A stretch of DNA of 56,830 nucleotides from a virus. Taxonomy: Duplodnaviria > Caudoviricetes. A model generated the notes under the pieces. The model saw only the letters and a program-made list of their open reading frames with translations. It was not told the DNA's origin and searched no databases. A program made the translations under genes and the position numbers. Of the stretch, positions 17,179 to 35,991 are shown in pieces (position 1 is the first letter of the stretch; each line of letters opens with the position of its first letter). The stretch covers positions 1 to 56,830 of the IMG/VR virus record IMGVR_UViG_3300025327_000035, one strand, 5' to 3'.

Positions 17179-17377
17179 ATTTCGCGCTTTCGAGCAAAAA
17201 AACTCAACGCGCTATGTCGTCCATCTATTCAGCGGCCCGGAGCATTTCAAGACCTGGTGCCAGGCGCATTGGCCACAGCACATGGTCGCCGCCAGCGCCG
17301 TTCGCGGCGTATGCGAGCGCTATCCGGTAGACCATCGCTTCGAGAATGAGCAAGAAATCATGGAGGTGCAGACGTGA
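17168..17377 (+). CDS. Small hypothetical protein
   Basis: Overlapping start/stop arrangement. Confidence 0.45.
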   Translation: MADEFRAFEQKNSTRYVVHLFSGPEHFKTWCQAHWPQHMVAASAVRGVCERYPVDHRFENEQEIMEVQT

Positions 17378-19318: not shown

Positions 19319-19666
19319 ATGAGCCACAGACACGATCTGACAAAGCGCGAGCGCCAGGCTGCTCGCCTGGTCGCGGCCGGCCTGACCAATCGAGAGATCG
19401 CCGAAAGACTTGGCGTCGAAACCGCGACGGCAAAGACGCATGTGAGCCAGGTCTTGCGCAAGCTGGGCGTGGAGAGCCGGGAAGATGTGCGCGAGCTGCC
19501 GGAGCCGAGCAACGGGCAACATTCTGCGTTTTCAAATGATGACGTGATCGAGATTTTATGGAGCATCCATGCGCTGATGCTGCGCAGGGGCAGCCCGGAG
19601 CTGGCGAGGATCGTCAACCGGGCCTTGCTCCATATCCGCCTGCACCGGAATGGGTACGAGCGATGA
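19319..19666 (+). CDS. LuxR/NarL-type HTH regulator with no receiver domain
   Basis: LTKRERQAARLVAAGLTNREIAERLGVETATAKTHVSQVLRKLGVESR. Confidence 0.9.
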   Translation: MSHRHDLTKRERQAARLVAAGLTNREIAERLGVETATAKTHVSQVLRKLGVESREDVRELPEPSNGQHSAFSNDDVIEILWSIHALMLRRGSPELARIVNRALLHIRLHRNGYER

Positions 19667-20106
19667 AGGCAAGCAGCATCTTGACCATCTGCGCCGGGGG
19701 CGGATTCCGTTCCCGGATCATGGCCGTGCTGCTCGCGCAGCGAACGGGCCTGCGCACGGCCTACGCCGGCACGACGACGGACTGGCAGGGGCGTGTGAAC
19801 CCGCACGCCACGGCGGTCTTGGAGCATGCCGGCATCTATGATCGTCCGCTCATCTCTCACCAGGTTCGGGCCGATGAGATCACCGCCGCCGGCATCGTGA
19901 TCTGCGCCGAGCGCCGGCATCGCGAGCAGTTGTGTGAGATGTATCCCGAGGCAGCGGAGAAGATGTTCACATTGGCGGAATTGGCCGGCGTCGAGGACGT
20001 CGCCGATCCGACGCCGATCGCGCACCTGGGGCACCAGCTGACGCTCGACGAGCTGATGCCGACGTATCAGGAGATTCGTGCGGCAGTGGAGCGGATTGCG
20101 CTATGA
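19663..20106 (+). CDS. Low-molecular-weight protein Tyr/Arg phosphatase (ArsC/LMW-PTP fold)
   Basis: N-terminal P-loop ICAGGGFRS (C-X5-R-S), YAGT, and DVADP general-acid motif. Confidence 0.85.
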   Translation: MKASSILTICAGGGFRSRIMAVLLAQRTGLRTAYAGTTTDWQGRVNPHATAVLEHAGIYDRPLISHQVRADEITAAGIVICAERRHREQLCEMYPEAAEKMFTLAELAGVEDVADPTPIAHLGHQLTLDELMPTYQEIRAAVERIAL

Positions 20107-21137
20107 ACTTCCACGAAGTATCAAACTTATTCCCATTGATGTCGGACGAAGAGCTAGACGAGCTTGCAGACGACATCCAGGAAAATGGCCTCAAGGAGGC
20201 TATCTGTATTCACGACGGCAAGATCATTGATGGCCGCAATCGGTACCTGGCGTGCGAGCGCGCAGGCGTGGAGCCGCACTATCAGGAATGGGATGGCCAA
20301 GGCTCGCTGGTGTCGTTCGTCGTTTCGCTGAACCTCAAACGGCGCCATTTGAGTGAGAGCCAGCGCGCAATGGTCGCGGGGAAGTTGGCGAATATGCGTT
20401 CGGGTTCACGGACCGATCTTGTGAGAAATGGTGCGGAACCTCCCGCCAATTGGCGGGAGGTTAGTCAGACCGAAGCTGCAACCTTGCTTAATGTCGGCGA
20501 GCGCAGCGTGCAGCGCGCCAAGACGGTCATCGATCGCGGTGTACCCGAGCTTCAACAGGCCGTCGAGCACGGAGAGGTGTCTGTATTAGCCGCGTCCGAA
20601 ATCGCCCGCGCGCCACAGGAGAAGCAGCGCGAGCGCCTCAACGTGCACTTCTCAAGCAGCAGCGATGACCATAATACGCCGAGACATATACTCGACATGG
20701 TGATGGCTGTGATGGGCGAGATCGACCTCGACCCATGCAGCAACAGCAAGGAATCACCGAACGTCCCGGCCAAATACCATTACACAAAAAGCGACGATGG
20801 ATTAAGCAAAAAGTGGTTTGGCCGGGTCTATATGAATCCCCCTTACGGCGATGAAATCCCGAAATGGGTAGGCAAGCTGGTCGATACCTTCGAGTCAGGT
20901 GAAGTCAAGGAGGCCATCGCATTACTCCCGGCCAGGACGGACACCGCCTGGTTTAACCAGGTATGCAGCTACACTATTTGTTTTGTGCGAGGCCGGCTCA
21001 AATTCGGAGATGCGAATAACTCGGCCCCGTTCCCGTCCGCAGTTGTCTACCTCGGCTCTCGCTCGAAGCGCTTCATAAAAGCCTTTTCTGAGATTGGGCC
21101 GGTATTCCAAAGGGTCGATCGAGATGTACAAATTTGA
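20103..21137 (+). CDS. ParB-like N-terminal domain fused to a phage Dam N6-adenine methyltransferase
   Basis: LADDIQENG...IIDGRNRY; HNTP...DLDPCS, MNPPYG, LLPARTDTAWF, RGRLKF, APFPSA. Confidence 0.9.
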   Translation: MNFHEVSNLFPLMSDEELDELADDIQENGLKEAICIHDGKIIDGRNRYLACERAGVEPHYQEWDGQGSLVSFVVSLNLKRRHLSESQRAMVAGKLANMRSGSRTDLVRNGAEPPANWREVSQTEAATLLNVGERSVQRAKTVIDRGVPELQQAVEHGEVSVLAASEIARAPQEKQRERLNVHFSSSSDDHNTPRHILDMVMAVMGEIDLDPCSNSKESPNVPAKYHYTKSDDGLSKKWFGRVYMNPPYGDEIPKWVGKLVDTFESGEVKEAIALLPARTDTAWFNQVCSYTICFVRGRLKFGDANNSAPFPSAVVYLGSRSKRFIKAFSEIGPVFQRVDRDVQI

Positions 21138-23705: not shown

Positions 23706-23819
23706 ATGGATCGAGCCACGTCCCCCAACGTGGCCCGCTCCCCCAAGGTGGTGCAGTTGCTGACATACCTGCACCCCCAGTATACACCCGTCTGTCAAGA
23801 CAGGCAATGGGGGTCAATG

Positions 23820-24647
23820 ATGAGTGTCAAGGCAATGACTGCCGTATTCGATGCGCGCAGACTGACTCCAACCGAAAAGCTAGTGCTCTTGGCGCTGGCC
23901 GATCATGCCTCCGAGGATGGATTGAATATCTATCCGAGTGTGGAGACTGTGTGTAAGAAGACCGCATTAGGAGACCGCACAGTAAGGCGCACCATCAAGT
24001 CGCTGAGAAGCGAAAAGAGAGGCATCCTGTTTCTGGTCAGGCGAAAAGGGCGACTGCAAAATGAATACGGCATGAATCTGGCGAAGTTGCAAGACCTGCC
24101 AGACGATCCACTGAGACCTGCCACTGTGGCAGGTCAAGACCTGTCAGACGATCCACTGAGACCTGCCACTGTGGCAGGTAAATCATCAGTAGAATCGTCA
24201 GATCATCCATCAGGAAATCTTAACGCTGCTACGCCGCGTAACGCTCGCCCGCAAGACCTGCACTTTGAAGCTCTCTCGGATGTCTCAAACCTGACACCGC
24301 CCGGGCGGGACTGGAAGCAGCTCACGCGGACCGCCGCCGGCCAGCTCAACCGCTACGCCAAAGAGCTGAGAGACGCCGGCGCGACACCGGAACAGATCGC
24401 GGCCTTTGGGCCGTGGTGGTACGCAAACGATTGGCGCGGCCAGAAGCGACAGCCGCCGAAGCCGGCGGACGTAGCCAGAGAGTGGCCGCGCTACAGGAAC
24501 GGAGATCGAACGAATGGAACACATCAGCAAAGCACTGGCCCGTTTGCAGGACTCGATCCCGCCGAGCGCGAACGGCTCCAGGCGCTCGCCGACAAGATCA
24601 ACGCTCGACGAGCGGCGAAGCGCGCAGCGCAGCGCGGCGCTGCGTGA
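23820..24647 (+). CDS. Replication initiator (N-terminal HTH_36-type winged helix)
   Basis: MSVKAM...KLVLLALADHA...YPSVETVCKKT.LGDRTVRRTIKSL; internal tandem repeat; followed by DnaC; the start could be upstream (23706/23817). Confidence 0.85.
   Translation: MSVKAMTAVFDARRLTPTEKLVLLALADHASEDGLNIYPSVETVCKKTALGDRTVRRTIKSLRSEKRGILFLVRRKGRLQNEYGMNLAKLQDLPDDPLRPATVAGQDLSDDPLRPATVAGKSSVESSDHPSGNLNAATPRNARPQDLHFEALSDVSNLTPPGRDWKQLTRTAAGQLNRYAKELRDAGATPEQIAAFGPWWYANDWRGQKRQPPKPADVAREWPRYRNGDRTNGTHQQSTGPFAGLDPAERERLQALADKINARRAAKRAAQRGAA
24090..24179. repeat. 2 x 45-bp tandem repeat, probable replication origin iterons
   Basis: CAAGACCTG(C/T)CAGACGATCCACTGAGACCTGCCACTGTGGCAGGT x2, each ending in the palindrome ACCTGCCAC-T-GTGGCAGGT. 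Confidence 0.85.
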
Positions 24648-25368
24648 GTACGCCGAGCTGCTGGGATCGACGCCCGGCATCGAGCGTTGTCCGAAGTGTG
24701 ACGGCTCCGGCGTCGTGGTCGATCCGCTTGGCTTCGGGCATTCGTGCCCGGAGTGTGAGCCTCGTCGGCAGGCCGAGCGGATGCAGGTGATGTCGGGCCT
24801 GAACGCCGACGAGCGCGCTGTTCGGCTCGACGACGTCGACTTCACCGGCGGCGGCACGGATGGACTGATCGTCGCGGCGCGGACGTTCCTGGTGCGGCCC
24901 GCCGGCATCCTGACACTGTGGGGCGGTCCGGGCAACGCCAAGACAATGGTGCTGCAGGCCATCGTCGGCGAGTGCCTGGCGCGCAGCGTGCCGGCGGTGT
25001 ACACGACATTCTACGATCTCGCGGGTTACGTGCGCGAGGCGTTCCGGGACGACAGCGAATCGGCCTGGCGGCGCATGCAGCGATTCCAGTCGGTGCGCGT
25101 GCTGTGCATTGACGAGCTGGACAAGGTGAAGGATACAAGTTGGTTGCGCGAGCTCGAGACAGCGATCATCGACAAGCGCTACCGCGATGGCCTGGCTGGT
25201 CTGACTGGAACGGTGATCGCCATGAATGAATCACCTGACTCATTGCCGGAGTGGATCAAGAGCCGGCTGCGGGATGGGCGCAATCGGATCGTGCACAATT
25301 CCGATCCGGATGTGCGGACGGCGATGTCGGATGAGAGCGGTCCGAGCGCGCGGCCGGCGGGGTTGTGA
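24514..25368 (+). CDS. DnaC/IstB-like AAA+ helicase loader
   Basis: CPKC...CPEC zinc motif; variant Walker A GGPGNAKT; Walker B LCIDEL; IKSRL. Confidence 0.9.
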   Translation: MEHISKALARLQDSIPPSANGSRRSPTRSTLDERRSAQRSAALREYAELLGSTPGIERCPKCDGSGVVVDPLGFGHSCPECEPRRQAERMQVMSGLNADERAVRLDDVDFTGGGTDGLIVAARTFLVRPAGILTLWGGPGNAKTMVLQAIVGECLARSVPAVYTTFYDLAGYVREAFRDDSESAWRRMQRFQSVRVLCIDELDKVKDTSWLRELETAIIDKRYRDGLAGLTGTVIAMNESPDSLPEWIKSRLRDGRNRIVHNSDPDVRTAMSDESGPSARPAGL

Positions 25369-25369
25369 T

Positions 25370-25564
25370 ATGACGATGAAGCAAGACGGAAACGTGAATC
25401 AAAGTTACATCGACCTGATCGTCGAAGCGTGGCACGAGCTGCAGGAGATCGAGGCGGGCCATGCCGCCAGGATCGACGGATGGCATCTCAAATGGTCGGC
25501 GCGATCCATCAGGGTTGGAGATCGCGAGGCGATGATCAGGAATCTGAAGAAGGCCAAAGTGTGA
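25370..25564 (+). CDS. Small hypothetical protein
   Basis: ATG directly after the DnaC stop. Confidence 0.4.
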   Translation: MTMKQDGNVNQSYIDLIVEAWHELQEIEAGHAARIDGWHLKWSARSIRVGDREAMIRNLKKAKV

Positions 25565-25771
25565 CCTGCGGCCCCGATGGGCGCATAGAGTCTCTAGGTC
25601 AGCCCGGGCCGGCCAGTCACGGCCTGGGCGCCTGCACCTGCCCGCGCGGGCGGGAGGGCCGGGAGTGATGCGCACCGAGTAGGCCGCTGAATCCAAATCG
25701 GCGAATGTGGTTGGAGATACAAAAAGGGACTCAGGGCAGAGGGCTGGCTCTGCCCTCCTTGAGGAGGAACA

Positions 25772-26008
25772 ATGGCGATCAACTCATACACATTACGGTC
25801 GGACGCAGATAGATTAGCGCAGGGACAAGCCGCAGGCGCATGGGATGGTGTTGTCAACCGCCTGCGCGAAGCGGCTGATGAGATTGATCGCTTGCGCACG
25901 GATTGTGCCGTGAAGCAAGGCGCGATAGATGCGATGTGCGGGGCGCTTGGCGTCAAGACGGTGCGCGAGGCGATGGCTGCGATCAATAAGCTGCACCTGA
26001 AAGGGTAG
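25772..26008 (+). CDS. Small hypothetical protein
   Basis: GAGGAGG RBS; LREAADEIDRLR. Confidence 0.65.
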   Translation: MAINSYTLRSDADRLAQGQAAGAWDGVVNRLREAADEIDRLRTDCAVKQGAIDAMCGALGVKTVREAMAAINKLHLKG

Positions 26009-26017
26009 GGGGATAAT

Positions 26018-26983
26018 GTGAAAACGATTTCCGCTGTTTTTCTGCTCGTGGCGCTCGTGCTCACCGGCTGTGTATCGGCCGAAGACCAAATCGCGTTGAT
26101 CAACGCGCGCCGCGCCGATGAGCAGAAACGCATCGATCAAGCGGCATACGAGACCATTGCGCCGGCGCTGGCGCAACTCGACCTGGAGGCGCAGCAGGCT
26201 GAGCAGGACCTGCGCATCGCGCAGGAGCGCCAAGTCAGCGTCGAGGAGCACGAGACACGCATGACGCAGATCTTGGCTGAGCGGACTGCGCTGATCGCAG
26301 GCATCCAAGTCGACGTGGCCGGCAAGGTGAACCGGCTCAACGCTGACTACGAGCGCCAAATCGCGCAGATTCGCCAGCAGACCGACCAGGCGAATGCTGA
26401 AGGATGGGGGAAGGTACTCATCATCGGCGGATTCTCGGCCTCGGTCACGCTGCTAATGCTTGCTCTGGTCTTTCTGATCAAGGCACAGGGCCAGGCCTAT
26501 GTGTTGAGGACTCAGACCGAGGCGCGCAGGCTGCAGGCGGACGCGAATGGCAAGTACGGTCTGGTGGCCGTCGATCAGGATACGTTTTTCGACGCCGACA
26601 TGCGTACCGGTGCGGTGACCTCATTTGATCGTATACCCTGGGCGATCAAGTTGGCGCTGTTGTGGATGGCTTGGAAGAGTGGCAAGCTCGACCTCGATCA
26701 GTGGCGCGAGGTTACACGCACGCGAGCTAGCTTCACCGACGACGATCTTAGCGAAGAAAGCCGGCTGGCCATCTATCAGGCCAATAAGGCGCATCAGATC
26801 GTCGCCGCCGCGACGAAGCCCGGAGCACAAGCGAATGACAAGATCGCTGGCGCGGTCCAGGGCCGTGTCGCCGGCGCGGTGAGCGGCCTGTTCGGCGGCG
26901 CATCGCAGGCGCTGCGCCTGATACGGACCGATGACCCGCTCGAGCTGGAATGGGTGCAGAAACATCTGCGCAATGGAGAATAG
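26018..26983 (+). CDS. Putative lipoprotein with coiled coil and transmembrane helix
   Basis: Lipobox LTGC after a hydrophobic leader; ~110-aa coiled coil; TM segment VLIIGGFSASVTLLMLALVFLI. Confidence 0.75.
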   Translation: MKTISAVFLLVALVLTGCVSAEDQIALINARRADEQKRIDQAAYETIAPALAQLDLEAQQAEQDLRIAQERQVSVEEHETRMTQILAERTALIAGIQVDVAGKVNRLNADYERQIAQIRQQTDQANAEGWGKVLIIGGFSASVTLLMLALVFLIKAQGQAYVLRTQTEARRLQADANGKYGLVAVDQDTFFDADMRTGAVTSFDRIPWAIKLALLWMAWKSGKLDLDQWREVTRTRASFTDDDLSEESRLAIYQANKAHQIVAAATKPGAQANDKIAGAVQGRVAGAVSGLFGGASQALRLIRTDDPLELEWVQKHLRNGE

Positions 26984-26985
26984 CC

Positions 26986-27198
26986 ATGAACAAAAGCCTC
27001 ACTGTGGTTTCATCTCATGGAACAGAGATTGTTTTTGACTTGGATAATGGCATGAAGTGGTCACGCGGGGAGGATGGTCGCGTCACCATCGAAAACCTCG
27101 ATGGCCTGATTGCCATTGTCCCGATCGACTGGTGCGTGACCGGTATCGAGCGCAGTAAGCTCACCGTAATATCTCCCGATGGCGAGGAGCGGCAATGA
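26986..27198 (+). CDS. Small hypothetical protein
   Basis: GGAG RBS; ATGA overlap with the next gene. Confidence 0.55.
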   Translation: MNKSLTVVSSHGTEIVFDLDNGMKWSRGEDGRVTIENLDGLIAIVPIDWCVTGIERSKLTVISPDGEERQ

Positions 27199-28025
27199 GA
27201 CGATGTTTGATTCTCGTCTTGCTGGGCTTGGCATTCATTGTGCCAGCGGCTCATGCGCAGGATCCAAGCCCGACGCTCGACCCAGTTGCCCAGGCCGAGG
27301 CATTGCAGGCCCAGGCCGATCGCGCGCTGTCCGAGGCGCAGGCCGCGGCCGGCCAGGCGTCTTCGTTGCGCGCCCAGGCAGCGCAGGCGGACGCGCGCGC
27401 GGCCCAGGCGCGTTCCGCTGCGCAATTGGCGCTGGCCGAAGCCGAGCGCTTGCGCCTCGTCGGCGCGCTGAGCGAAGCCCAGGCAGCCATCGAGCAAGCG
27501 CGACTGGCCGAGCAGCAGGCCGCGCAGATCGAGGTCGAGGCTGCTCAGGCCCGGGCGCTGTACGACGAGGCTTACATGCGCGCGCTTGGCGCGATCGCCA
27601 ATGCCGAAGAGGCAATGAAGAGCGCCGGGATCTCCGTGGCAAACGTCGAAGCGCTTCGCGCTCAACTTGCCGCGATGCAGAGCGATCTGCGTGTGGCCGA
27701 AGAGCGATCGCGCATCCTGGCAATCGCCGGCGCCGGCCTGTTCGCGCTGGTGGCACTCAGCGCGCTCGCGGCATTGCAGATCATGCGCCATCAGCGTCGA
27801 ATGATCATCGGAAGCGTCGACGTCGCCGTGCGGTCGCTGTCCCGCGAGCGGGCGCAGGTCACGGAGATGCTTATGCACATGCTGGCCAGCATCGGCGGCA
27901 AAGACGGAGAGACGATCATCGATCACGGCGCGCCGGCGCTCGACGGGGACGATCTATTCATCCGGCGCTACGCCGATGCGCCGGAGCACATCGTCGAAGG
28001 CTTGAAAGATTTATTCCATGACTAA
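27195..28025 (+). CDS. Signal-peptide / coiled-coil / TM membrane protein
   Basis: Leader ending AHA-Q; Ala/Gln-rich coiled coil; TM segment ILAIAGAGLFALVALSALAAL. Confidence 0.75.
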   Translation: MRRCLILVLLGLAFIVPAAHAQDPSPTLDPVAQAEALQAQADRALSEAQAAAGQASSLRAQAAQADARAAQARSAAQLALAEAERLRLVGALSEAQAAIEQARLAEQQAAQIEVEAAQARALYDEAYMRALGAIANAEEAMKSAGISVANVEALRAQLAAMQSDLRVAEERSRILAIAGAGLFALVALSALAALQIMRHQRRMIIGSVDVAVRSLSRERAQVTEMLMHMLASIGGKDGETIIDHGAPALDGDDLFIRRYADAPEHIVEGLKDLFHD

Positions 28026-29565
28026 CACCGCATTGGCGGTTATATCCGACGCGGACATCTTCAAGGCCGCCAGCCGGCTTGCTCGTGGCCTGGAGAGCCA
28101 TCCCTCGCTGCGCCACGATAACGGCGACGGCTCGATCTTTCGCGTGACGATTATGCAGGATGTCACGCTGATCGCCAATCGCTATCTGCTCGTGCCGGTC
28201 GACCTGAATCGCCTGTGGCACTTCGACAAGAGCCGTCTGCGCCGGCCCCGACTGCTGGAGCACCTGGAGATCGAGGTTGGAATGCCTGTCAGGTATATCG
28301 CATCCGATCGGGGCTTCTTCTATGTACTCGAGTGGAACTCCGGGCGCGGGAATGGCGCGCCGGCCCGGGCCATAGCGCTGCCGGGGATGGTGGCACTGCC
28401 GTCTGTCGAGCGCGATCGGTTCGCGCTGGGCGTTGCCGATCACGGGCCGCTGCTTGCCGAGCGCCGCGAGCTGCGTGGTGTGGTCGTCGGCGGCGGGCCT
28501 CGCACGGGCAAGACGAGCCTGCTGCGCTCGCTGGCTTACCAGGCTGTGAGCAATGGCTGGATATTGTATCTGGCAGATAAGCCGCTCGGAAACACGTTCA
28601 TGCCGGCGCTGTGGTCGCGTGTGCCGAGCGTCGCAGGCATTGCCACGAATGGATCTGAAATCGATGAGCTGCTCACGGACATTGACGATCAGTGCAGCCG
28701 GCGCGCTGCGCTGTTCGCTGAGGCGGCGCGCAATTACATTCCACCCGAAGACCTGGAGCAGTTCAACGAATGGACCGGCTCGCGCTTGCCGCCGATCCTG
28801 TTCGCGGCTGACGAGTTCAATACGTTCAGCCACTACATCTCGATGGAGCGGTTCGCCGACATCGCGCGCCGCAATCAGAAATACGGGTTGATGATTGTCA
28901 TCGCTGCGCACGAGTGGAAGAGCGACGCCATCAGCAAGTCGCTTTCCGAACTTCTGGAGACGCGCATCTGCTTCCACATGGCGAGCCGTGAGGCAATCCG
29001 CGCGGTGATGCCGTTTGTCAGCCCGGCGCAGGTGGCACAGCTCGGCCGTATCGCCGAGCAGGGCAGGGTGGCGATCAATCTGATGGGTCATCACTCGCTG
29101 ATGCAGGCTTACTATCTCGATCCGGAGCGGCTGTCGGCGATGGCCGTGAGCCAGGCCGTCGAGAAGCCGCGTGTGACGCTCACAACGAATGAGCAGGAGA
29201 TCGCCCGCGCGGCGATCGAGGAACTGGACGGTTACTTCTCCATTGAAAAGCTGGCCGCGCTCGGCATCAGCCGGCGCCAGATTGTCAAAGCGTCGAAGGC
29301 GTGGGCAGACCGGGGCTGGCTTGGACCGGTGACGGACAGGGGACGAGCTTTGACAGATCGCTTCGCCGATGATACCGGCCTGGAGCAGGGTAGGCCCCAA
29401 GAGGCCCCAGGGCGATCAGACCGATCAGACGATCAGGGCGATCAGACCGATCAGGCCCCCGAAACATTGGGCTTTGCCGGCAGAGCGACGGAGCGCGACA
29501 TCGCGTTCGCGGAGGGTCTGATCGCCCGCAGAGGGGGTCTGAACGCCGGTCTGACCGGGGTCTGA
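28018..29565 (+). CDS. FtsK/SpoIIIE-family DNA translocase with a C-terminal winged-helix-like domain
   Basis: Walker A GGPRTGKT; ILFAADEF Walker B; ARRNQKYGL; TRICF; GISRRQIVKASKAWADRGWL. Confidence 0.8.
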   Translation: MTNTALAVISDADIFKAASRLARGLESHPSLRHDNGDGSIFRVTIMQDVTLIANRYLLVPVDLNRLWHFDKSRLRRPRLLEHLEIEVGMPVRYIASDRGFFYVLEWNSGRGNGAPARAIALPGMVALPSVERDRFALGVADHGPLLAERRELRGVVVGGGPRTGKTSLLRSLAYQAVSNGWILYLADKPLGNTFMPALWSRVPSVAGIATNGSEIDELLTDIDDQCSRRAALFAEAARNYIPPEDLEQFNEWTGSRLPPILFAADEFNTFSHYISMERFADIARRNQKYGLMIVIAAHEWKSDAISKSLSELLETRICFHMASREAIRAVMPFVSPAQVAQLGRIAEQGRVAINLMGHHSLMQAYYLDPERLSAMAVSQAVEKPRVTLTTNEQEIARAAIEELDGYFSIEKLAALGISRRQIVKASKAWADRGWLGPVTDRGRALTDRFADDTGLEQGRPQEAPGRSDRSDDQGDQTDQAPETLGFAGRATERDIAFAEGLIARRGGLNAGLTGV

Positions 29566-29580
29566 CCGCCCCGATCAGAC
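29413..29580. repeat. Cluster of ten 7-9 bp repeats (CGnTCAGAC) in both orientations
   Basis: CGATCAG at 29413, 29422, 29430, 29439, 29448 and 29572; inverted GTCTGAnCG at 29516, 29537, 29549 and 29560. Confidence 0.85.
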
Positions 29581-29679
29581 CAGGGGATTACACATGAAAG
29601 CTGTCATGGCGATCGCCTTGATCATGGAGAACAAGGCAAAGGCGGTGCTGGCGGTGATTGACGCGGAGCGGCCGCCGGC

Positions 29680-30021
29680 ATGCGAGTGCGGGAGGTGCTC
29701 GTGAGCGACAGAGAACAGCGATACATCGTGACCTCGCGCGATTTCAGTGGCGGCGTCACCATCTGGTACGTGAAGGATTCGCGCGTCGTCGCCGGCGGCG
29801 AGCCAGCTATCGTCGCACGTTGCAATAATGAATCAGACGCGCGGCTGGTGCGGGACGCGCTGAATGCTCCCGCCGATGCCGAGGCGTTCCTGCGGCACTG
29901 GCTGCGCGAGCGGATGCAGGCCGATGGGGCGCTGGTGGAGATGGCGATACGCGATTTCCGGGAGTGGCAGAGATCCCGGATTTCGGGAGTCTCATCAGGC
30001 CCCAAAAGTGCCCCCGGTTAA
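29680..30021 (+). CDS. Hypothetical protein
   Basis: GGAGG RBS before GTG 29701, the likely start. Confidence 0.5.
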   Translation: MRVREVLVSDREQRYIVTSRDFSGGVTIWYVKDSRVVAGGEPAIVARCNNESDARLVRDALNAPADAEAFLRHWLRERMQADGALVEMAIRDFREWQRSRISGVSSGPKSAPG

Positions 30022-30060
30022 ACGGAGAAGCCCGTCACGATTCGTGACAGAGGTCGAACG

Positions 30061-30531
30061 ATGCCTGATACGTTTCCGCCCAAATTTGGAGGAAAATTCA
30101 AATTCTATCGCACGCGCGATCTGGCCCGATTTCTGACGAGGCTTCACGAGCGGGAAAGGCTTTCGTGGCGCGACATCGCTCAAGAGAAATTCGGTAATGG
30201 GATACCGCCTGGCACGCTATGCCGAATCGCAAAAGGCGACTATGATCCGAGACACAACAGCATTCGAGAGAAGCTTGGCTTGCCAAAAACGATCAGGCTC
30301 GTGGTGTTGAATGGTCATATCCGCGAAGGCGCGGTTGTTCTGGGTCATTCGCGTCGGTGTGCCTGGCGGCGATGTCGTGTGCACTTCGTCGGCGACGCAA
30401 GCCGGCGATACTGCTCGGATGAATGCGGTCGCCAGGCTCACGCTGATCAGCGGAAGCGATCAGCAAAAGAGCGCCGCGAGCGGGCGCGCCGGCTGGTGGC
30501 TCGCAAGCGGAACGAAAAGCGGAGGAAATGA
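30061..30531 (+). CDS. HTH + zinc-finger DNA-binding protein
   Basis: LSWRDIAQEKFGNGIPPGTLCRIAKG; CAWRRC...YCSDEC; basic tail. Confidence 0.65.
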   Translation: MPDTFPPKFGGKFKFYRTRDLARFLTRLHERERLSWRDIAQEKFGNGIPPGTLCRIAKGDYDPRHNSIREKLGLPKTIRLVVLNGHIREGAVVLGHSRRCAWRRCRVHFVGDASRRYCSDECGRQAHADQRKRSAKERRERARRLVARKRNEKRRK

Positions 30532-30532
30532 C

Positions 30533-32203
30533 ATGCTCAAAATATCCGATCGCCTTTCGCTTCCTGTCGAAGCGATCACCCAAACGTTTGGCATTCTGGC
30601 CGTGCGTGGCGCCGGCAAGTCTAATCTGGCCGCCGTGATGGCTGAGGAGATGTTCGATGCTCGTCTGCCATTCGTGGTCATCGATCCGGTCGGCGCATGG
30701 TGGGGCCTGCGCTCGTCAGGCGATGGCCGTTCTGCCGGCATCCCGGTTCCGATCTTCGGCGGCCGGCATGGGGATGTGCCGCTTGAACGCGCAGGCGGGA
30801 ACCTGATCGCGGATCTCGTCGTCGAGCATCGGCTTAGTTGCGTTCTGGACGTCAGTGAGCTAAGCGAAGGCGACAAGGTGCGTTTCTTGTGCGACTTCGC
30901 CGAGCGTCTCTATCGGCGCAACACAGAGCCGTTACATCTCTTCTTGGAGGAGGCCGACGATTATGCTCCGCAGCGTCCCATGCGCGAGCAGGCGAGACTA
31001 TTACGCGCCTGGGAAAACATCGTGCGCCGTGGCCGGGCGCGCGGCCTGGGCATCACGATGGTCACACAGCGGAGCGCCGCATTAAACAAGAATGTGCTCA
31101 CGCAGATCGAGACGCTATTCGTGCTGCGCACCACGTCACCGCAAGACCGTAAGGCGATTGCGGCTTGGGTTGAATACTACGATCAGAGCCGTGACGTGCT
31201 CGAATCGCTTCCCAGCCTGATGAACGGCGAGGCGTGGGTTTGGTCGCCGTACTTTCTCAAGACGATCAAGCGAGTCCATATTCGCCGCCGTCGCACATTC
31301 GACAGCGCTGCAACGCCGAAGCAGATACGCGGTGGTCGAAAGCCCGCGACGCTGGCGGACGTCGACCTGGCTGCTATCGGCGAACGAATGCAGGATACAA
31401 TCGAGCGCGCGAAGGAAATCGATCCGACGGAGCTTCAAAAGCGCATCGCCGATCTAGAGCGCCGATTACGCGCACAGCCGAAGCCAGAAATTGAGCGCGT
31501 GGTTGATCGAATCGAGATTCCAATTTTCAAGGACAGCGAGGTGGCACGGCTCGAAAAGGCCGTTGCCGGCATCCAGGAATTCGGCGCGCAATTGGTGAAT
31601 GTGGCGCAGGAAATCAGCGGCGCGCTGCGGGCGGTGACGACCAGGCCAATGCCTGCACCTGTGAATCCGGTTTGGGTGCGTCCCGTGGTTTCCCCTGCCC
31701 CACGTGCGGCCAGGACGGAAGCAGCTGAGGCAGATGTCAAGCTGCCAAAGGCGGAACGATCGATCTTATCTGTGCTGGCACAGTATTATCCGCAAGGACG
31801 AAACAAGACGCAGCTCGCGATCCTGGCCGGCTACTCTGTGAAGGGTGGGGGATTCAACAATGCGATCGGCGCGTTGCGCTCCTATGGATTCATTCGCGGT
31901 GGCAAAGAGCACATCGAGATCACAGACGCCGGTCTGTCTGCAATCGGCAGCGATTGGGAGCTACTGCCGACCGGTCGGGTACTGATCGATTATTGGCTGC
32001 GTGAGTTGCCGAAGGCCGAGCGGTCGATCCTGAGTGTGCTGGTGGACGCATATCCGAATGCAGTCGAGAAGACCGCGCTTGCCGAGGCGGCCGGCTATCA
32101 GGTCGGAGGCGGTGGATTCAACAATGCGCTTGGCAAGCTGCGCACGCTCGAGTTGGCGAGAGGACGAAATGAGATCCGGGCGAGTGATGCGCTGTTTGAA
32201 TGA
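30533..32203 (+). CDS. HerA/DUF87-like ATPase with tandem C-terminal winged-helix repeats
   Basis: GILAVRGAGKS, VIDPVGAW, LFLEEAD, RRGRARG, TQRSA; LPKAERSILSVL...GGGFNNA occurs twice. Confidence 0.85.
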   Translation: MLKISDRLSLPVEAITQTFGILAVRGAGKSNLAAVMAEEMFDARLPFVVIDPVGAWWGLRSSGDGRSAGIPVPIFGGRHGDVPLERAGGNLIADLVVEHRLSCVLDVSELSEGDKVRFLCDFAERLYRRNTEPLHLFLEEADDYAPQRPMREQARLLRAWENIVRRGRARGLGITMVTQRSAALNKNVLTQIETLFVLRTTSPQDRKAIAAWVEYYDQSRDVLESLPSLMNGEAWVWSPYFLKTIKRVHIRRRRTFDSAATPKQIRGGRKPATLADVDLAAIGERMQDTIERAKEIDPTELQKRIADLERRLRAQPKPEIERVVDRIEIPIFKDSEVARLEKAVAGIQEFGAQLVNVAQEISGALRAVTTRPMPAPVNPVWVRPVVSPAPRAARTEAAEADVKLPKAERSILSVLAQYYPQGRNKTQLAILAGYSVKGGGFNNAIGALRSYGFIRGGKEHIEITDAGLSAIGSDWELLPTGRVLIDYWLRELPKAERSILSVLVDAYPNAVEKTALAEAAGYQVGGGGFNNALGKLRTLELARGRNEIRASDALFE

Positions 32204-32373
32204 GGGCGGCTCAATGCCTGTCGAGAATGCAATCGTGGTAAGCGGGATAGAACCCCGACCACATAACTAGCGACAAGGCCACTTATCGTTAGTGCGGTAT
32301 AGGTCCTTACACGCTACCGGGAACCTCTCATAAAAAAGATTATGTTCAATACTTGCTTAGCCGCTGATAGTAT

Positions 32374-32607
32374 ATGCGCGATTTTCCCCCTGCCCCGCCT
32401 GGCCTGACCCATTACTGGTACTGGCGCATCCGCAAATGGCACCCTGAGCGCTTCGGCCAGCCGTGCCGCATCCTGGCGCGCGGCAAGCTGAACACCGTCC
32501 TCGTTGAATTCGAGGACGGCTACCGAATGACCACGAGCCGATGGTTCGTGCGGCGCATGACTCCAGGCGCGGCCCAGCCCGTGCGGGCTGCGTTCGGCGA
32601 GAAGTAG
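32374..32607 (+). CDS. Small phage hypothetical protein (SH3-like?)
   Basis: ERFGQPCRILARGKLNTVLVEFEDG. Confidence 0.6.
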   Translation: MRDFPPAPPGLTHYWYWRIRKWHPERFGQPCRILARGKLNTVLVEFEDGYRMTTSRWFVRRMTPGAAQPVRAAFGEK

Positions 32608-32626
32608 AACGCGCGTGCAGGGGCTG

Positions 32627-32655
32627 GCCCGGCCGGAGCGCCGGGCTTTGTGTTT
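32627..32655 (+). terminator. Intrinsic terminator
   Basis: GCCCGGC-CGGAGC-GCCGGGC-TTTGTGTTT. Confidence 0.6.
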
Positions 32656-32690
32656 ACAGCGTTTTCGCTGCGGAATTTCTAACCAATTTT

Positions 32691-32732
32691 CAGGTAATTC
32701 CCTATTGACAAATAGGTAATTACCTGTATAAT
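32691..32732 (+). promoter_or_regulatory. Consensus promoter overlapped by a double operator
   Basis: TTGACA-N16-TATAAT (32705-32732); 16-bp inverted repeat 32691-32706 / 32711-32726. Confidence 0.8.
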
Positions 32733-32765
32733 AAAGGCAAGATTGAGAAAGGAAAGGAGATAGCA

Positions 32766-32984
32766 ATGAATCAAGCACAGAAATTCGATGGTAAGTATGT
32801 TGATGTTTCGGAAATCCTAGCCGCTGGCGCGGTGTGGGATGAAATCGGGAACGTCTACATGTTCCCGGATCATAGCATCGGTGGATTCACCGACATTCGC
32901 AACGGCGGCGCGGAGCGCACTGTTACCGGAGAAAAGATTTTCCATTTAGTTGGCGGCGACATTCACCCCGATTACGCTGACTGA
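32766..32984 (+). CDS. Hypothetical protein
   Basis: AAGGAG RBS right after the promoter. Confidence 0.7.
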   Translation: MNQAQKFDGKYVDVSEILAAGAVWDEIGNVYMFPDHSIGGFTDIRNGGAERTVTGEKIFHLVGGDIHPDYAD

Positions 32985-33014
32985 CCTGCTGCACCTCGGG
33001 GGCCGTGGATTGAT

Positions 33015-33389
33015 ATGACCAAGAAGCGCGTTCGACGACCAATAGTATCCGGCCTCCGCGTGAATGGCAAACCCGTTCACGCGGAGGCCGGCGTGCGCGA
33101 AGTCTGTCGCGCGCTCCAGTACGTCGCCACGACCGGCAGCGGCGCAGGCGTGGAGCCAGCGCCGCGCCAATTGCTGGAGGCCATCGGCACGGGCCAGGCG
33201 GCGGTGTTCAACATCCACGACGACTCGGCGCTGGAACTCGCGCCGGTGCTGCGACAGATGGCGCAGCGGGCTGATGCCGAAGATGACAATGATCTGGCGT
33301 CCATTCTCGCAGCGGTGGCAACCGCGCTGGAGATGGCACGAAAGCTTGCCAAGGCCGACGAAGAGCACAGGAAGCCGCGCGGGAAGTAG
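33015..33389 (+). CDS. Hypothetical protein
   Basis: Operon context, Ala-rich helical. Confidence 0.55.
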   Translation: MTKKRVRRPIVSGLRVNGKPVHAEAGVREVCRALQYVATTGSGAGVEPAPRQLLEAIGTGQAAVFNIHDDSALELAPVLRQMAQRADAEDDNDLASILAAVATALEMARKLAKADEEHRKPRGK

Positions 33390-33414
33390 CAGCGTTGCGG
33401 TGGTTGAGGATGAA

Positions 33415-33768
33415 ATGAAATTACAAGAATTTTCTTTCCTGCTCAAGGCCAAATATCCTGATGCCGAATGCTGCCGCAATCGTGAATTCGGCGGCACGCC
33501 AGTGAATAATGGTTTGGCAATCGCCTTCAAGCCTGACGGCAAGGTCTATCATTATCGCGGCTCATTCGATTCGATTGCGGTTCAGCTGAAGCTAGTATCT
33601 GTCTTCTCGGTGCGACGGGGTGGTGAAATTATCGGAGAAGCGTTCACGCACGAGGAAGCTGAAACCATTCTCGTGCGTGAGCAGGCGCGATACGCCGAGA
33701 TGGCCGCGAGATGGCCGTATAGTTGGAATCATGGCCGCGATACATTTGACATCGTGCAGACACAGTAG
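33415..33768 (+). CDS. Hypothetical protein
   Basis: GAGGA RBS before ATG 33415. Confidence 0.55.
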   Translation: MKLQEFSFLLKAKYPDAECCRNREFGGTPVNNGLAIAFKPDGKVYHYRGSFDSIAVQLKLVSVFSVRRGGEIIGEAFTHEEAETILVREQARYAEMAARWPYSWNHGRDTFDIVQTQ

Positions 33769-33817
33769 TTGTTGCGGCCCAGGCCGCCGGGAGCGCCCGT
33801 GACAGCGCGGAGAGGAA

Positions 33818-34117
33818 ATGCCAACGGCATCATGGGGAAACGGTGGTTGGGCGGATTTGGTCAATGTCGGGGATGTAAGAGTTTTGCTCATCCGCGCCGG
33901 ACGCGGGCCGTATGCGTCCAGGCAGCGTCCGGCCAGTGAGGCCGGATGGACGAAAGATGAATTGAGGGAGATCGCCGTGGAGGCGGTCGAGAAGGCAAAG
34001 TTTCTCGAATACGGCATTTTGTCCCTCTGCGTGAACTTGAGTCGGGGCTGCATTCTCAGCGGCTCAAATTCGTGGAAGACGACAGGTAGAATCGAAATCA
34101 AGTTGCCGCCAAAGTAG
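33818..34117 (+). CDS. Hypothetical protein
   Basis: GGAGAGGA RBS. Confidence 0.5.
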   Translation: MPTASWGNGGWADLVNVGDVRVLLIRAGRGPYASRQRPASEAGWTKDELREIAVEAVEKAKFLEYGILSLCVNLSRGCILSGSNSWKTTGRIEIKLPPK

Positions 34118-34143
34118 CGCGGTTTACACTCCGACCAATCCCC

Positions 34144-34177
34144 GCAGGCCACGTCGCGTATCGCGTGGCCTGCTTTT
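34144..34177 (+). terminator. Terminator between convergent genes
   Basis: GCAGGCCACG / CGTGGCCTGC stem + TTTT. Confidence 0.75.
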
Positions 34178-34190
34178 CATCCCCCCTACC

Positions 34191-35132
34191 CTACTCTTTC
34201 TCCGGCGGCAGCCACGACACCTCATTATGCCGCCGGTGTATCTCTTCCTCATAGTAGATCGCATAAAACGTCAACGTCGTCCTGACATCCTCGTGACCGA
34301 GGATCTCCTGCAGCTCGCGCGGATTCGCGCCGCGCTGGATGGCGCCGCGTGCGAAGCCGTGCCGGAAGGCGTGCGGATTGAATCGGCCCGTCACGCCAGC
34401 GCGACGCGCCAGGCGCTTGAGCACCTGGTAGATGCCGCCGGTCGTCAGCGGTCTGCCATGCACGCCGACGAAGATGAGCGGCCCGGCGTCAGTCGGCCGC
34501 TCCTCGTCGATGTAGCGCCGCAGCGCATTCGCGGCGCGCTCGGGCAGATGCACGCGCCTGGCCTTGTCGCCTTTCTCGCGCACGAGGATAACACGCGCGT
34601 CGAGGTCGACGTCGTCCACCCGCAGGCCGGCCAGGCCGCCGGCGCGGATCGCCGTGCCGGCAAGCACACAGACGATGGCGTAGTCGCGCAGCCCCCGCTT
34701 GCTTCCAGCGGGGGGCTGCGCCGCATCGAGCAGGCGCAGCAGGTCGTCGAAGCGCAGGTCTCGCGGCGGCATTTTCGGAAGCTTCGGTCGCTTGAGGCGG
34801 TGCGCGGGATTGGCGGTGATGACCCGCTCCTCGACGAGCCAGTTGAAAAAGCGCTTCCAGGCGCGCACATGCTTGTGGAGCGTGTAAACGGAGAGGCCGC
34901 CGGACTGCGCCGGGCGCGAGGGATGATCGGCGTAGCGCGTCGTGCGGTCGCGGAGTTGGGCGTAGACCAGGCGCAGATCGTCTATCGTGACCTCGCCGAC
35001 GGGCTTGTCAATTGCGCGCAGCGGGCGCAGGCACTTCTCGTAATCGGCGACAGTAGCGGGCTTCACCTCCAGGCCGACGGCAAACAGGAATCGGTCGATG
35101 GCCTGCGAGATGTGAAGAGTGTCGGCCGGCAT
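34191..35132 (-). CDS. Tyrosine recombinase / integrase (XerC/D-like)
   Basis: Catalytic R (TAIRAG), K (EKGDK), HAFRH, LGH and Y (TTLTFY); N-terminal SAM-like domain. Confidence 0.95.
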   Translation of the reverse strand: MPADTLHISQAIDRFLFAVGLEVKPATVADYEKCLRPLRAIDKPVGEVTIDDLRLVYAQLRDRTTRYADHPSRPAQSGGLSVYTLHKHVRAWKRFFNWLVEERVITANPAHRLKRPKLPKMPPRDLRFDDLLRLLDAAQPPAGSKRGLRDYAIVCVLAGTAIRAGGLAGLRVDDVDLDARVILVREKGDKARRVHLPERAANALRRYIDEERPTDAGPLIFVGVHGRPLTTGGIYQVLKRLARRAGVTGRFNPHAFRHGFARGAIQRGANPRELQEILGHEDVRTTLTFYAIYYEEEIHRRHNEVSWLPPEKE

Positions 35133-35291
35133 GAATGTAGTGTATGCGATTTGGTTAGCCGATCAGTTGGGGATTGGTGAGTTGCGATCATGTTACAGGC
35201 GGCTGTGTTTTGTCAAGGCGGTATAACAGCACGGTATGAATTTGGTCGGGGATGGTTTCGCTTGGAGCAGTTGTGCGGTAAAGTGATTGGC

Positions 35292-35477
35292 ATGGCCTCG
35301 CAAATTTCGTCGTCGAACGATGATTCATCGTCGTCGACGCAGTTCGACAAGCAATTTTGGTCAGAGTATCGGGAAAGCCTGATAGCTGAGGTGCGCGCGT
35401 TGCAAAGGCGGATCAAGGCGATCGAGCGCAGCATGCAGAATCCTCGGCGTGTTGACACAAAACAGGAAAAGCAGTAA
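35292..35477 (+). CDS. Small helical protein overlapping the late promoter
   Basis: FWSEYRESLIAEVRALQRRIKAIER. Confidence 0.45.
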   Translation: MASQISSSNDDSSSSTQFDKQFWSEYRESLIAEVRALQRRIKAIERSMQNPRRVDTKQEKQ

Positions 35478-35496
35478 ACTGAGCGCAATCGAATAG
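35452..35496 (+). promoter_or_regulatory. Late promoter 1 with AATCGAATAG at the start site
   Basis: TTGACA-N17-TAAACT-N6-AATCGAATAG. Confidence 0.7.
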
Positions 35497-35550
35497 CCGC
35501 GCCGGTCCGATGTTGAGGCCGGTCAGGCTTCATGACACGGAGCACCGCGT

Positions 35551-35583
35551 AACGCGCAGCCCGGATTGGGTGGCGCGTTTTTG
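35551..35583 (+). terminator. Leader terminator before the lysis cassette
   Basis: AACGCGC-AGCCC...GGGT-GGCGCGTT-TTT. Confidence 0.55.
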
Positions 35584-35607
35584 CGTCTCCATCACGAGGA
35601 GGACATC

Positions 35608-35910
35608 ATGCTTACCGCAGAGCAACTCGCTGCAATCGCCGGCGCGATTCTCTCTCTGGTGCTGAGTTACGTTCCGGGTCTCAGCGATTGGTACGGCGGC
35701 CTCGACGCGACGAAGAAACGTCTCGCGATGGCCGCCTTGCTTTTCGTGTCGGCGGCCGGTGTCCTGGGCCTGTCGTGCGCAGACGTGCTCGATCTCGTCG
35801 AGTGTACGACCTTCGGCGCGGTCGAGTTGGTGAAGATCTTTATCGCGGCGCTGATGGCCAACCAGGCAATTTACCTGATCAGTCCGAAGCGCGCGGGCGG
35901 CGCTTCTTGA
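35608..35910 (+). CDS. Holin-like membrane protein (3 TM)
   Basis: GAGGAGG RBS; 100 aa; three hydrophobic helices and a basic C-terminus; upstream of an M23 peptidase. Confidence 0.7.
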   Translation: MLTAEQLAAIAGAILSLVLSYVPGLSDWYGGLDATKKRLAMAALLFVSAAGVLGLSCADVLDLVECTTFGAVELVKIFIAALMANQAIYLISPKRAGGAS

Positions 35911-35991
35911 GGCCGGGCGGGGTATTGCGGCAGGGGCGCCCGGCCGGCGCGGCTTTCGCCGCGTTCCTCCTACCCCTGCCGCTTCGCAATC

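Follow-up and report, generated by a model that had tools for sequence, protein, structure and literature searches.

What is the function of an FtsK/SpoIIIE-family ATPase whose gene ends in an array of short repeats and follows genes for membrane proteins in the genome of a tailed phage? This question is raised by positions 26018 to 29581 of the IMG/VR virus record IMGVR_UViG_3300025327_000035, a complete record of 56,830 bp that is referred to here as the window. A previous reading made from the DNA without database searches (the sequence-only reading) had proposed that this locus is a DNA-spreading module comparable to the TraB/Spd/clt systems of Streptomyces plasmids. Our comparative analysis indicates that the module is real and conserved, and that the analogy to TraB and clt is mechanistically apt but does not extend to family membership. 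We consider it probable that its four genes, here called A to D, and the array together specify a site-directed, membrane-anchored translocase of double-stranded DNA (dsDNA), in which a C-terminal winged helix-turn-helix (wHTH) domain of the ATPase reads the array.

The run of a lipoprotein gene, a small open reading frame (ORF), a gene for a protein with a signal peptide and a transmembrane (TM) segment and an FtsK-like ATPase gene was found in full, as proposed, at positions 26018 to 29565, all on the plus strand. Gene A (26018-26983) starts at a GTG codon preceded by a GGGGG ribosome-binding site and codes for a predicted lipoprotein of 321 amino acids (aa) with an LTGC lipobox (Cys18). According to hydropathy, the protein has a helical ectodomain rich in Gln, Ala and Glu, a second TM helix at about residues 133 to 155 and then a C-terminal domain of about 165 aa, which is probably cytoplasmic. 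Gene B (26986-27198) codes for a small soluble protein of 70 aa; its mechanically defined ORF begins at 26950, but the ATG at 26986 is the likelier start, as it has a GGAG 8 nucleotides (nt) upstream and lies directly past the gene A stop codon. The product of gene C (27195-28025) is a bitopic protein of 276 aa with a signal peptide cleavable between AHA and QD; its helical ectodomain is rich in Ala and Gln, and a TM helix (about residues 175 to 197) is followed by a basic cytoplasmic tail of 80 aa. Gene D (28018-29565) encodes the ATPase, a soluble P-loop protein of 515 aa. As genes A and B abut, B and C overlap by 4 nt and C and D overlap by 8 nt, the four genes look like one translationally coupled operon. 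The A, B and C proteins were assigned to no family of Pfam, PHROG or NCBIfam. A match of the A protein to Cor (E-value 0.002) was restricted to the signal peptide (residues 1-22), and a match of the C protein to the Lpp/OprI alanine zipper, the one sign of the coiled coils that had been proposed, was below threshold (E-value 1.9e-4, 21.9 bits for a cut-off of 43).

The exact sequence CGNTCAGAC is present 11 times in the window compared to 3.27 expected occurrences, and none of 100 shuffled sequences reached this number. Eight of the 11 sites are located within 170 bp (29413-29580); with the addition of the degenerate units CGATCAGgg (29430) and CGATCAGgc (29448), the cluster between 29410 and 29581 amounts to the ten repeats that had been counted before at the 3' end of the ATPase gene. 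Among the three exact sites outside the cluster, those at 12-20 and 56701-56709 are one and the same site in the terminal overlap of the record. The longer consensus of the unit is GGGCG[A/G]TCAGACC. Sub-array 1 (29410-29457, plus strand) consists of five head-to-tail (GGG)CGATCAGAC(C) units, three exact and two degenerate, with spacings of 9, 8, 9 and 9 bp; it lies inside the sequence coding for the tail of D and is read in two frames (RSD, RSD, DQ, DQ, DQ). A spacer of 57 bp separates these five units from the four units of sub-array 2 in the reversed orientation (29514-29571, minus strand, at 29516, 29537, 29549 and 29560), the last of which holds the ATPase stop codon, and a further forward unit follows past this stop codon (29572-29580, within 29569-29581, plus strand). 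The reversed units encode Gly-Leu, and the array-encoded tail of D is the low-complexity sequence GRSDRSDDQGDQTDQ. When repeated 8-mers were counted in sliding windows along the entire genome, this array and the iterons of the replication initiator gene, described below, came out as the top two clusters. Logan contigs of four sequencing runs, compared to 27000-31000, gave short pieces of low depth that left 29412-29545 uncovered. Two other roles of the array were considered and rejected, that of a replication origin, as the O-like initiator gene holds its own iterons at 24090-24179, and that of a pac/cos or attP site, by its position relative to the TerS-like and TerL genes (38944-41068) and the integrase gene (34191-35132).

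Loci related to the module, designated by L numbers, were gathered from IMG/VR, JGI metagenomes and GTDB genomes and provided 26 distinct ATPase 3' ends. For each of them we counted how often the commonest 7-mer occurred without overlap on either strand between -250 and +300 of the stop codon, and a threshold of at least 5 copies was applied. This threshold was reached at nine of the 26 ends, with 7 copies in the window, L004, L012 and L022, 6 in L002 and L006, and 5 in L011, L013 and L017. It was reached in about 3.5% of the controls, namely in 24 of 663 windows tiled over other parts of these loci (Fisher p 8e-7) and at 6 of 175 3' ends belonging to other open frames (Fisher p 8e-6). Since L012 and L013 hardly differ, it is safer to speak of eight independent lineages. 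Three additional loci (L005, L008 and L015) have four copies each, which are nearly exclusive to the ATPase 3' end. The expectation of the sequence-only reading that homologous modules carry 3' repeat clusters was thus borne out, with motifs that differ between lineages.

The units of these arrays are mostly spaced by 8-11 bp and are nearly contiguous. The motif is GATCAGAC in the window and in L008, which share GCGATCAG and whose ATPases are 45% identical, and CTGCCAAACC in L002, L012 and L013, the ATPases of L002 and L012 being 37% identical. It is GTCTCAAAC[CT] in L004 and L006, with L004, L006 and L005 described together by GTCTCAAAC[CT] or GTCAAACC, whereas L011, L017 and L022 carry CGCACACG, CTCCAGAC and CCGACGAAC, respectively. 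The CTGCCAAACC array lies within the ORF in L002, where it is translated as 'RQTRQT...', but 150-240 bp past the stop codon in L012 and L013. This difference in position, and the occurrence of the window units in two frames and on both strands, indicate that the repeat is a DNA signal and not a peptide signal; the low-complexity tails of the array-bearing ATPases can accordingly be regarded as a by-product of the array. The closest relative of D, P0004 (512 aa), has the tail 'QGDQGDQP..GQGDQ', which suggests the same GATCAG array as in the window. Second clusters, of 5-6 copies of an 8-mer, were observed 0.3-1.3 kb downstream of the ATPase gene in L001 (7676-8100), L003 (7726-8150) and L004 (8001-8400); those of L003 and L004 adjoin or lie in genes resembling helix-turn-helix (HTH) replication initiators and are probably origins.

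The ATPase D comprises an N-terminal domain (residues 1-120), a motor (approximately 121-378), a wHTH domain (382-460) and the low-complexity tail (461-515). The C-terminal winged-helix-like segment had been recognised in the sequence-only reading, and its fold was predicted here. Residues 382-460 (29161-29397, plus strand) were modelled with AlphaFold2 (AF2) from a 17-sequence alignment of the window and 16 loci, which yielded the canonical order H1-b-H2-H3-b-b with a mean predicted local distance difference test (pLDDT) of 87.8; the single-sequence AF2 model of full-length D had a pLDDT of 37. All Foldseek matches of the domain are winged helices (RuvB domain III, MntR/DtxR, MarR and the FtsK gamma structures 2ve8 and 2ve9). 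The family hidden Markov model (HMM) runs unbroken from the motor into the gamma domain of the host FtsK, and is likewise collinear with the FtsK gamma constructs of E. coli and P. aeruginosa in the PDB, reaching profile position 424-425 of 442. No family member matched Pfam FtsK_gamma at E<=0.01, the window D did not match FtsK_alpha, and a profile of the wHTH searched against PDB sequences gave weak MarR-type matches alone (E-value about 0.01). Taken as a prediction, a winged-helix fold in D, on which the sequence-only reading depended, can be proposed with high confidence. The recognition-helix sequences group by lineage in the same way as the motifs (RRQI/NRQL, REAR and WPAR/WKAR), which is consistent with co-variation of the reader and its site in a comparison where shared ancestry was left uncorrected. 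In L003, L010 and L015, which are lipoprotein-fused and related forms, the W-x3-GW wHTH is absent, and another C-terminal HTH-like segment (...SKSEMARTAGF...) precedes an S/T tail for which 3-4 copies of ACCTCTAC or AAGTAGA code; these may represent a second pair of reader and site.

The motor of D carries Walker A (G164-K165) and Walker B (D265-E266) motifs that are invariant in a 40-sequence alignment, as in an FtsK/SpoIIIE motor, and D matched phrog_1358 'FtsK/SpoIIIE-like' (1.3e-13). An exhaustive HMMER search returned 501 cluster representatives at E<=1e-3, of which 162 reached E<=1e-10; the majority have 430-500 aa. The family profile and alignment were made from the 40 best of the 501 representatives, and 35 of these 40 relatives matched Pfam FtsK_SpoIIIE (PF01580), the best with 3e-22. 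In the PDB, the best match of the profile was EssC (4nh0, 1.5e-38), followed by a 'DNA translocase coupling protein' (7.7e-31), and FtsK was matched with 2.9e-24. The coupling protein (6o1w-6o1z) is presumably TcpA of the Clostridium perfringens plasmid pCW3. D alone matched one EccC chain in the PDB, and scored 31 and 26 bits with the NCBIfam models EssC and EccCb, the cut-offs of which are 778 and 347. The profile gave 141.6 bits on a Chloroflexota chromosomal FtsK versus 30.6 bits, over the motor only, on pIJ101 Tra. By these comparisons D is a genuine FtsK/SpoIIIE-family motor that belongs to a separate clade and, as far as the one Tra compared (pIJ101) represents it, not to the Streptomyces Tra clade. 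No match of D was detected by tblastn in 50,697 phage records or 72,556 plasmids, and a word-indexed search retrieved just 2 relatives. Its Atlas neighbours are mostly Uroviricota and Chloroflexota clusters; actinomycete TraB clusters rank 10 with a score of 0.94, which is a lead only.

No hydrophobic 19-mer is present in D, in line with the earlier remark that the ATPase has no obvious TM helix, and the N-terminal polytopic membrane domain of the FtsK type is absent. A membrane segment is provided by the neighbouring genes or, in relatives of D, by fusion. The membrane partners are in fact syntenic with the ATPase or fused to it in the related loci: a bitopic protein with a signal peptide or lipobox and a TM segment is encoded immediately 5' of the ATPase in 10 of the 13 lineages with enough upstream sequence, and the other three are a fused form (L015), an ambiguous case (L005) and a locus without partner (L037). 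These partners have 290-365 aa and a signal or lipobox at the N-terminus, and a second TM segment near residues 170-230 is usual; their genes often overlap the ATPase start and are frequently preceded by a gene for an extra small membrane protein. In L015 the ATPase carries the entire unit of lipoprotein, Ala/Gln-rich stretch and TM segment as a fusion. Of 149 family representatives, 24 contain a hydrophobic segment on the N-terminal side of Walker A, about 16-17 of them being long forms that have a lipobox and/or a TM segment approximately 100-200 residues before Walker A. Prediction of a complex between the tail of C (residues 165-276) and the N-terminal domain of D (residues 1-135) gave a score of 0.56, compared to 0.01 for the best of 3 controls; the runs agree in at least 25% of the contacts, and the partner pLDDT is at least 56. 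The mark used is passed by 58 of 80 solved complexes and by 2 of 110 mismatched pairs, and the range of 0.60 or under contains just 7 of the 80 solved complexes and both passing mismatches. C is therefore best called a candidate membrane anchor of D, for which fusion and synteny are stronger arguments than the predicted complex. A word-indexed search found no relatives of the C protein, and the A, B and C proteins and the HerA-like protein encoded downstream had no match among all neighbour ORFs of the related loci (phmmer and BLASTP).

The module was compared to the known systems that it resembles. In Streptomyces, clt contains direct 8-bp repeats that are recognised by the cognate TraB, and the Spd proteins form complexes with TraB, one of them, SpdB2, having an N-terminal coiled coil and being pore-forming, according to one article (PMC4447253). 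As these TraB/clt/Spd systems are depicted there and in PMC3429521 (pSVH1, pIJ101, and elements of actinomycetes that are both integrative and conjugative (AICEs), such as pSAM2), the module shares with them a single FtsK-like motor with a C-terminal wHTH, direct repeats of about 8 bp in cis, within the 3' end of the gene for the motor or next to it, a likeness that held when tested, accessory membrane proteins (with coiled coils in the case of Spd), Int and Rep functions and a host that is probably filamentous. The make-up of the whole element is AICE-like, with an integrase, a replication initiator with separate iterons and a Tra-like module, to which virion genes are added. In contrast to the TraB elements, the window module is found in another phylum and within a tailed phage that forms virions, D has no TM segment of its own and little similarity to pIJ101 Tra, and half of the window units are inverted. 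No GntR-type TraR was matched beside the module among the ORFs scanned, from 23706 to 32203. The TraB/Spd/clt analogy was therefore upheld for the architecture, but not for membership of the Tra clade, given the bit scores above, nor for homology to Spd, given the absence of family matches.

The best-supported homology is that to FtsK, with its gamma domain and FtsK-orienting polar sequences (KOPS), and to SpoIIIE, with its SpoIIIE recognition sequences (SRS), as the motor and the C-terminal wHTH are collinear. KOPS and SRS are recognition sites of the 8-bp class that are read by the winged helix. Unlike FtsK and SpoIIIE, D has no four-TM N-terminal domain and is phage-encoded beside dedicated bitopic partners, and the putative recognition sites of the window are clustered at one locus instead of being genome-wide and skewed. 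EssC and EccC of type VII secretion systems (T7SS) are FtsK-like ATPases as well, and the T7SS proteins EssB and EsaA are single-pass membrane proteins with long extracellular helical domains that partner the ATPase; D differs from EssC/EccC by its single ATPase domain instead of three, by the absence of FHA and TM domains and by its wHTH and cognate array. The likeness to TcpA of pCW3, the second-best PDB match of the profile, would be that to a conjugative FtsK-family motor. TcpA acts with a relaxase and an apparatus similar to a type IV secretion system (T4SS) on single-stranded DNA, whereas the window showed neither relaxase nor T4SS genes. TdtA of the Thermus thermophilus element ICETh1 is a mobile-element ATPase that pushes dsDNA out of the donor, as stated in an abstract (PMC5365140). 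D may be likened to it, by description alone, as an ATPase encoded on a mobile element. We know of no cis repeat array for TdtA.

Our full-text searches brought up no account of a phage in which an FtsK-like motor is combined with a cognate 3' array and bitopic partners, a negative that applies to these searches alone. A Chloroflexus-associated viral contig with an FtsK/SpoIIIE 'accessory gene' is mentioned in one article, which does not analyse it further (PMC8597652). FtsK-like Tra elements are described as nearly confined to Actinomycetales and tied to the hyphal habit in a 2012 review (PMC3429521).

A narrow pattern search of 185,579 species genomes gave just two matches, a Thermoflexales and an Anaerolineae metagenome-assembled genome (MAG) with several copies each, which fits the earlier guess of a Chloroflexota host. 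Among 301 sampled genomes of that phylum, nine matched at E<=1e-40; four of these resemble chromosomal FtsK (frames of 724-732 aa), which leaves five with the phage-type protein. On sequence grounds, such a sporadic spread of the phage-type ATPase is the pattern of mobile elements, and the host of the window phage is probably a member of the Chloroflexota. Anaerolineae and Thermoflexales are filamentous. The TerL of the window had no homologue in 7 IMG/VR records that carry the module. Module-bearing IMG/VR records contained a Pfam portal in 3 of 5 and an HK97 capsid in 2 of 5, no capsid was found on the ATPase contigs of 5 MAGs, and L037 contains a tail sheath gene and an integrase gene.

From these data we infer a mode of action that includes the binding of the array by the wHTH, a hexameric motor, the membrane topology, the direction and purpose of transport and the host. 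Genes A to D and the array at 29410-29581 would form one conserved module. The bitopic C, and probably also A, would keep D on the cytoplasmic side of the membrane, while the lipid- or signal-anchored helical ectodomains of A and C would reach into the cell wall. Through its gamma-like winged helix, D would recognise the array units of 8-10 bp located where the D gene ends, and the array would act in cis as a loading site, like clt or the TraB recognition sequences (TRS) for TraB or KOPS for FtsK. The D motor, presumed to be hexameric, would then pump the phage's own dsDNA through the membrane complex, most likely so that excised or replicating genomes could cross the septal membranes between filamentous Chloroflexota cells without virions. 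Taken as a whole, including cell-to-cell spread along the filament, this proposal is plausible, although we stop somewhat short of calling it probable. Its most far-reaching form must be regarded as rather doubtful, namely that the phage has a second, virion-independent transmission route in which a TraB/clt-like machine pumps circular dsDNA through the cross-walls of the trichome, that such phages are phage-conjugative hybrids, and that FtsK-like conjugation arose or spread independently in a second filamentous phylum.

Several observations weigh against the proposed translocase and its role in spread. Fewer than 5 copies of a 7-mer were counted in 17 of the 26 relatives, and no clear array was seen in ten or more loci (L014, L016, L021, L023-L026, L031, L033 and L034). 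The arrays are always located at the junction with the next gene and could be operators or centromeres for another protein. RuvB, MntR and MarR outrank FtsK gamma (rank 33-34, E-value 0.08) among the Foldseek matches, all of which have E-values above 0.01, as expected for a domain of 79 residues. D alone did not match PF01580 at E<=0.1 but generic AAA models only, and the family appears much nearer to FtsK and EssC than to the one Streptomyces Tra compared. No sequence similarity was detected among the membrane partners across loci (BLASTP, phmmer), so that the designation 'Spd-like' would refer to their architecture alone. The host and its filamentous habit are themselves inferred. Finally, a gene for a ParM-like actin (actin-like protein, ALP; PF17989) was detected by jackhmmer immediately 3' of the ATPase gene and on the same strand in 7 distinct loci, namely L002 (7193-8176), L010 (981-1541), L014 (7709-8770), L015 (7090-8079), L016 (6570-7550), L017/L036 (L036 6496-7506, minus strand) and L024/L037 (L037 8741-9736, minus strand). 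To our knowledge, a recurrent pairing of FtsK-like and actin-like genes in Chloroflexota phages or elements has not been described.

These ALP neighbours place the module in a DNA-maintenance neighbourhood and thereby raise the standing of two other explanations. One is septal segregation or partition, in which the same pump, like FtsK or SpoIIIE, clears replicating or episomal phage genomes from closing septa or distributes them to the daughter cells, in some relatives with a ParM-like actin, and no transfer to separate neighbours takes place. Besides the ALP genes, it can draw on L036, which also contains ParB, DnaB and, upstream of the module, a second FtsK-like gene (FtsK_alpha and FtsK_SpoIIIE, 396 aa), on the greater closeness of the profile to the host FtsK than to pIJ101 Tra, and on the collinearity of the wHTH with FtsK gamma. 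It is a serious rival to cell-to-cell spread, although we hold it to be unlikely; the window has an integrase, and no ALP was detected over its entire sequence (jackhmmer with two ALP queries). The motif is, moreover, essentially confined to one locus, unlike a KOPS-like guide, and large wall-spanning ectodomains would be needless at a closing septum. Spread is thus favoured over segregation, although not decisively, by the single-locus clt-like site, by these ectodomains and by the integrase, because an integrated prophage needs no partition. The other explanation, that the array is read by another protein, as a parC-like centromere or an operator for a ParR-like adaptor or for small downstream proteins, we regard as distinctly improbable. 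It would account for the constant position of the arrays at the junction with the next gene, and in L002 and L017 the arrays lie 85-245 bp upstream of the ALP gene. Type II partition loci have parC upstream of the actin gene, a position that the L002 and L017 arrays match, so that the likeness to ParMRC consists in short direct-repeat arrays just 5' of an actin-like gene; phage genomes also often hold operator arrays, and another one is present in the window at 16250-16297. In contrast to ParMRC, however, the window has no ParM-like gene and the arrays follow the FtsK-like ATPase rather than an actin. Arrays without an ALP in the flank are found in the window, L004, L005, L006, L012, L013 and L022, and three ALP loci (L014, L016 and L024) have no array. 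The genes downstream vary, whereas the wHTH-bearing ATPase is the constant neighbour of the array, and the motif changes along with the wHTH lineage.

A function other than moving the phage's own DNA, either as a superinfection-exclusion or DNA-entry device against related incoming phages or as a T7SS-like protein export ATPase with bitopic partners, seems to us very unlikely. The family profile does find EssC as its best PDB match, D shows the weak NCBIfam EssC/EccCb matches, lipoprotein exclusion proteins are common in temperate phages, and phrog_1358 is filed under 'moron, auxiliary metabolic gene and host takeover'. D is, however, a 515-aa protein with a single P-loop domain and no FHA or TM domain, no WXG100-like neighbour was found among the ORFs scanned, the Cor match of the A protein spans its signal peptide only, and a sequence-specific wHTH paired with a cognate array in the phage itself speaks for DNA as the substrate, in cis. 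That the repeats are incidental, without a sequence-specific reader, and represent a coding tail of low complexity, a product of slippage or a terminator hairpin, is hardly credible and is largely refuted by the comparative data. The array does encode the low-complexity tail of D, lies at the end of the operon and has a strong predicted RNA fold (z -6.6). This fold is due to the inverted layout, which is common to the window, L008 and L017; the purely direct arrays of the other relatives form no such hairpin. A promoter and terminator scan at the array found no T-tract terminator, and no Rfam family scored above gathering there (a sub-threshold sRNA match had 20.3 bits for a gathering score of 72). 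The units occur, furthermore, in two frames, on both strands and, in one case, past the stop codon, the CTGCCAAACC array is outside the ORF in L012 and L013, and motifs are retained between proteins of 37-45% identity.

The genome around the module is that of a virion-forming tailed phage, as had been proposed, which was confirmed by family matches of the large terminase TerL (39353-41068), the portal (41071-43770), a head-morphogenesis protein (51974-52900), a protease-capsid fusion (53579-56404) and the tail tube (4825-6156). The first 141 bp (1-141) recur at 56690-56830 with 140/141 identity, and the genome is therefore circular or terminally redundant; the single mismatch, at position 127, implies polymorphism. 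A tyrosine integrase gene (34191-35132, minus strand; PF00589, 3.1e-36) marks the phage as temperate by its annotation. It is antisense to a longer plus-strand ORF (34227-35180) without family match, which is probably spurious, and several other minus-strand ORFs, from 32314 to 36015, may constitute a lysogeny module. Just upstream of the A to D genes, PHROG matches identified a replication initiator that resembles lambda O (23706-24647) and a loader that resembles DnaC (24514-25368). Iterons inside the initiator gene (24090-24179), composed of two copies of a 45-bp unit (97%) and five copies of ACCTGCCA, are probably the phage origin, by analogy to lambda, and would be separate from the array at 29410-29581. 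An operator-like element in the early region (16250-16297) consists of 2.6 copies of a unit of about 18 bp, AATTGTGTCACATGTGACA, and contains a palindrome.

Another ATPase of the FtsK-HerA superfamily, of 630 aa, is encoded about 750 bp downstream of the array (30311-32203, plus strand). It matched DUF87/HerA_C, the NCBIfam HerA model (8e-21) and phrog_2666 'terminase large subunit', and its C-terminus contains a duplicated segment starting with PKAERSILSVL that resembles two winged helices; no homologue of it was found beside the module in other loci. A ParB-like N-terminal domain is fused to a DNA methyltransferase at 20103-21137 (plus strand; phrog_111 2e-38, phrog_4715 ParB-like 9e-15). 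The plus strand also carries cargo that is unusual in a phage, namely genes for a double-PAS-domain protein (35992-36774), a low-molecular-weight phosphotyrosine phosphatase (19558-20106), a DdrB-like protein binding single-stranded DNA (17374-18132) and a membrane glycosyltransferase with weak similarity to GT87 (14940-15821).

FtsK-like 'accessory' genes are common in phages, where their role is unassigned, and a large clade of them is now given a concrete mechanism that can be tested. Its parts are a lineage-specific array of 8-10-bp units, a gamma-like winged helix as the reader and a membrane anchor that is separate or fused. If the module moves DNA along filaments, the border between phages and conjugative elements would be blurred, TraB-type dsDNA conjugation would extend beyond Actinomycetales, and the spread of infection in multicellular bacteria would have to be rethought. 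If it serves septal segregation instead, it would be a new type of phage partition device that is linked to ParM-like actins. Either way, the pairs of arrays and winged helices would represent a natural orthogonal set for DNA recognition.

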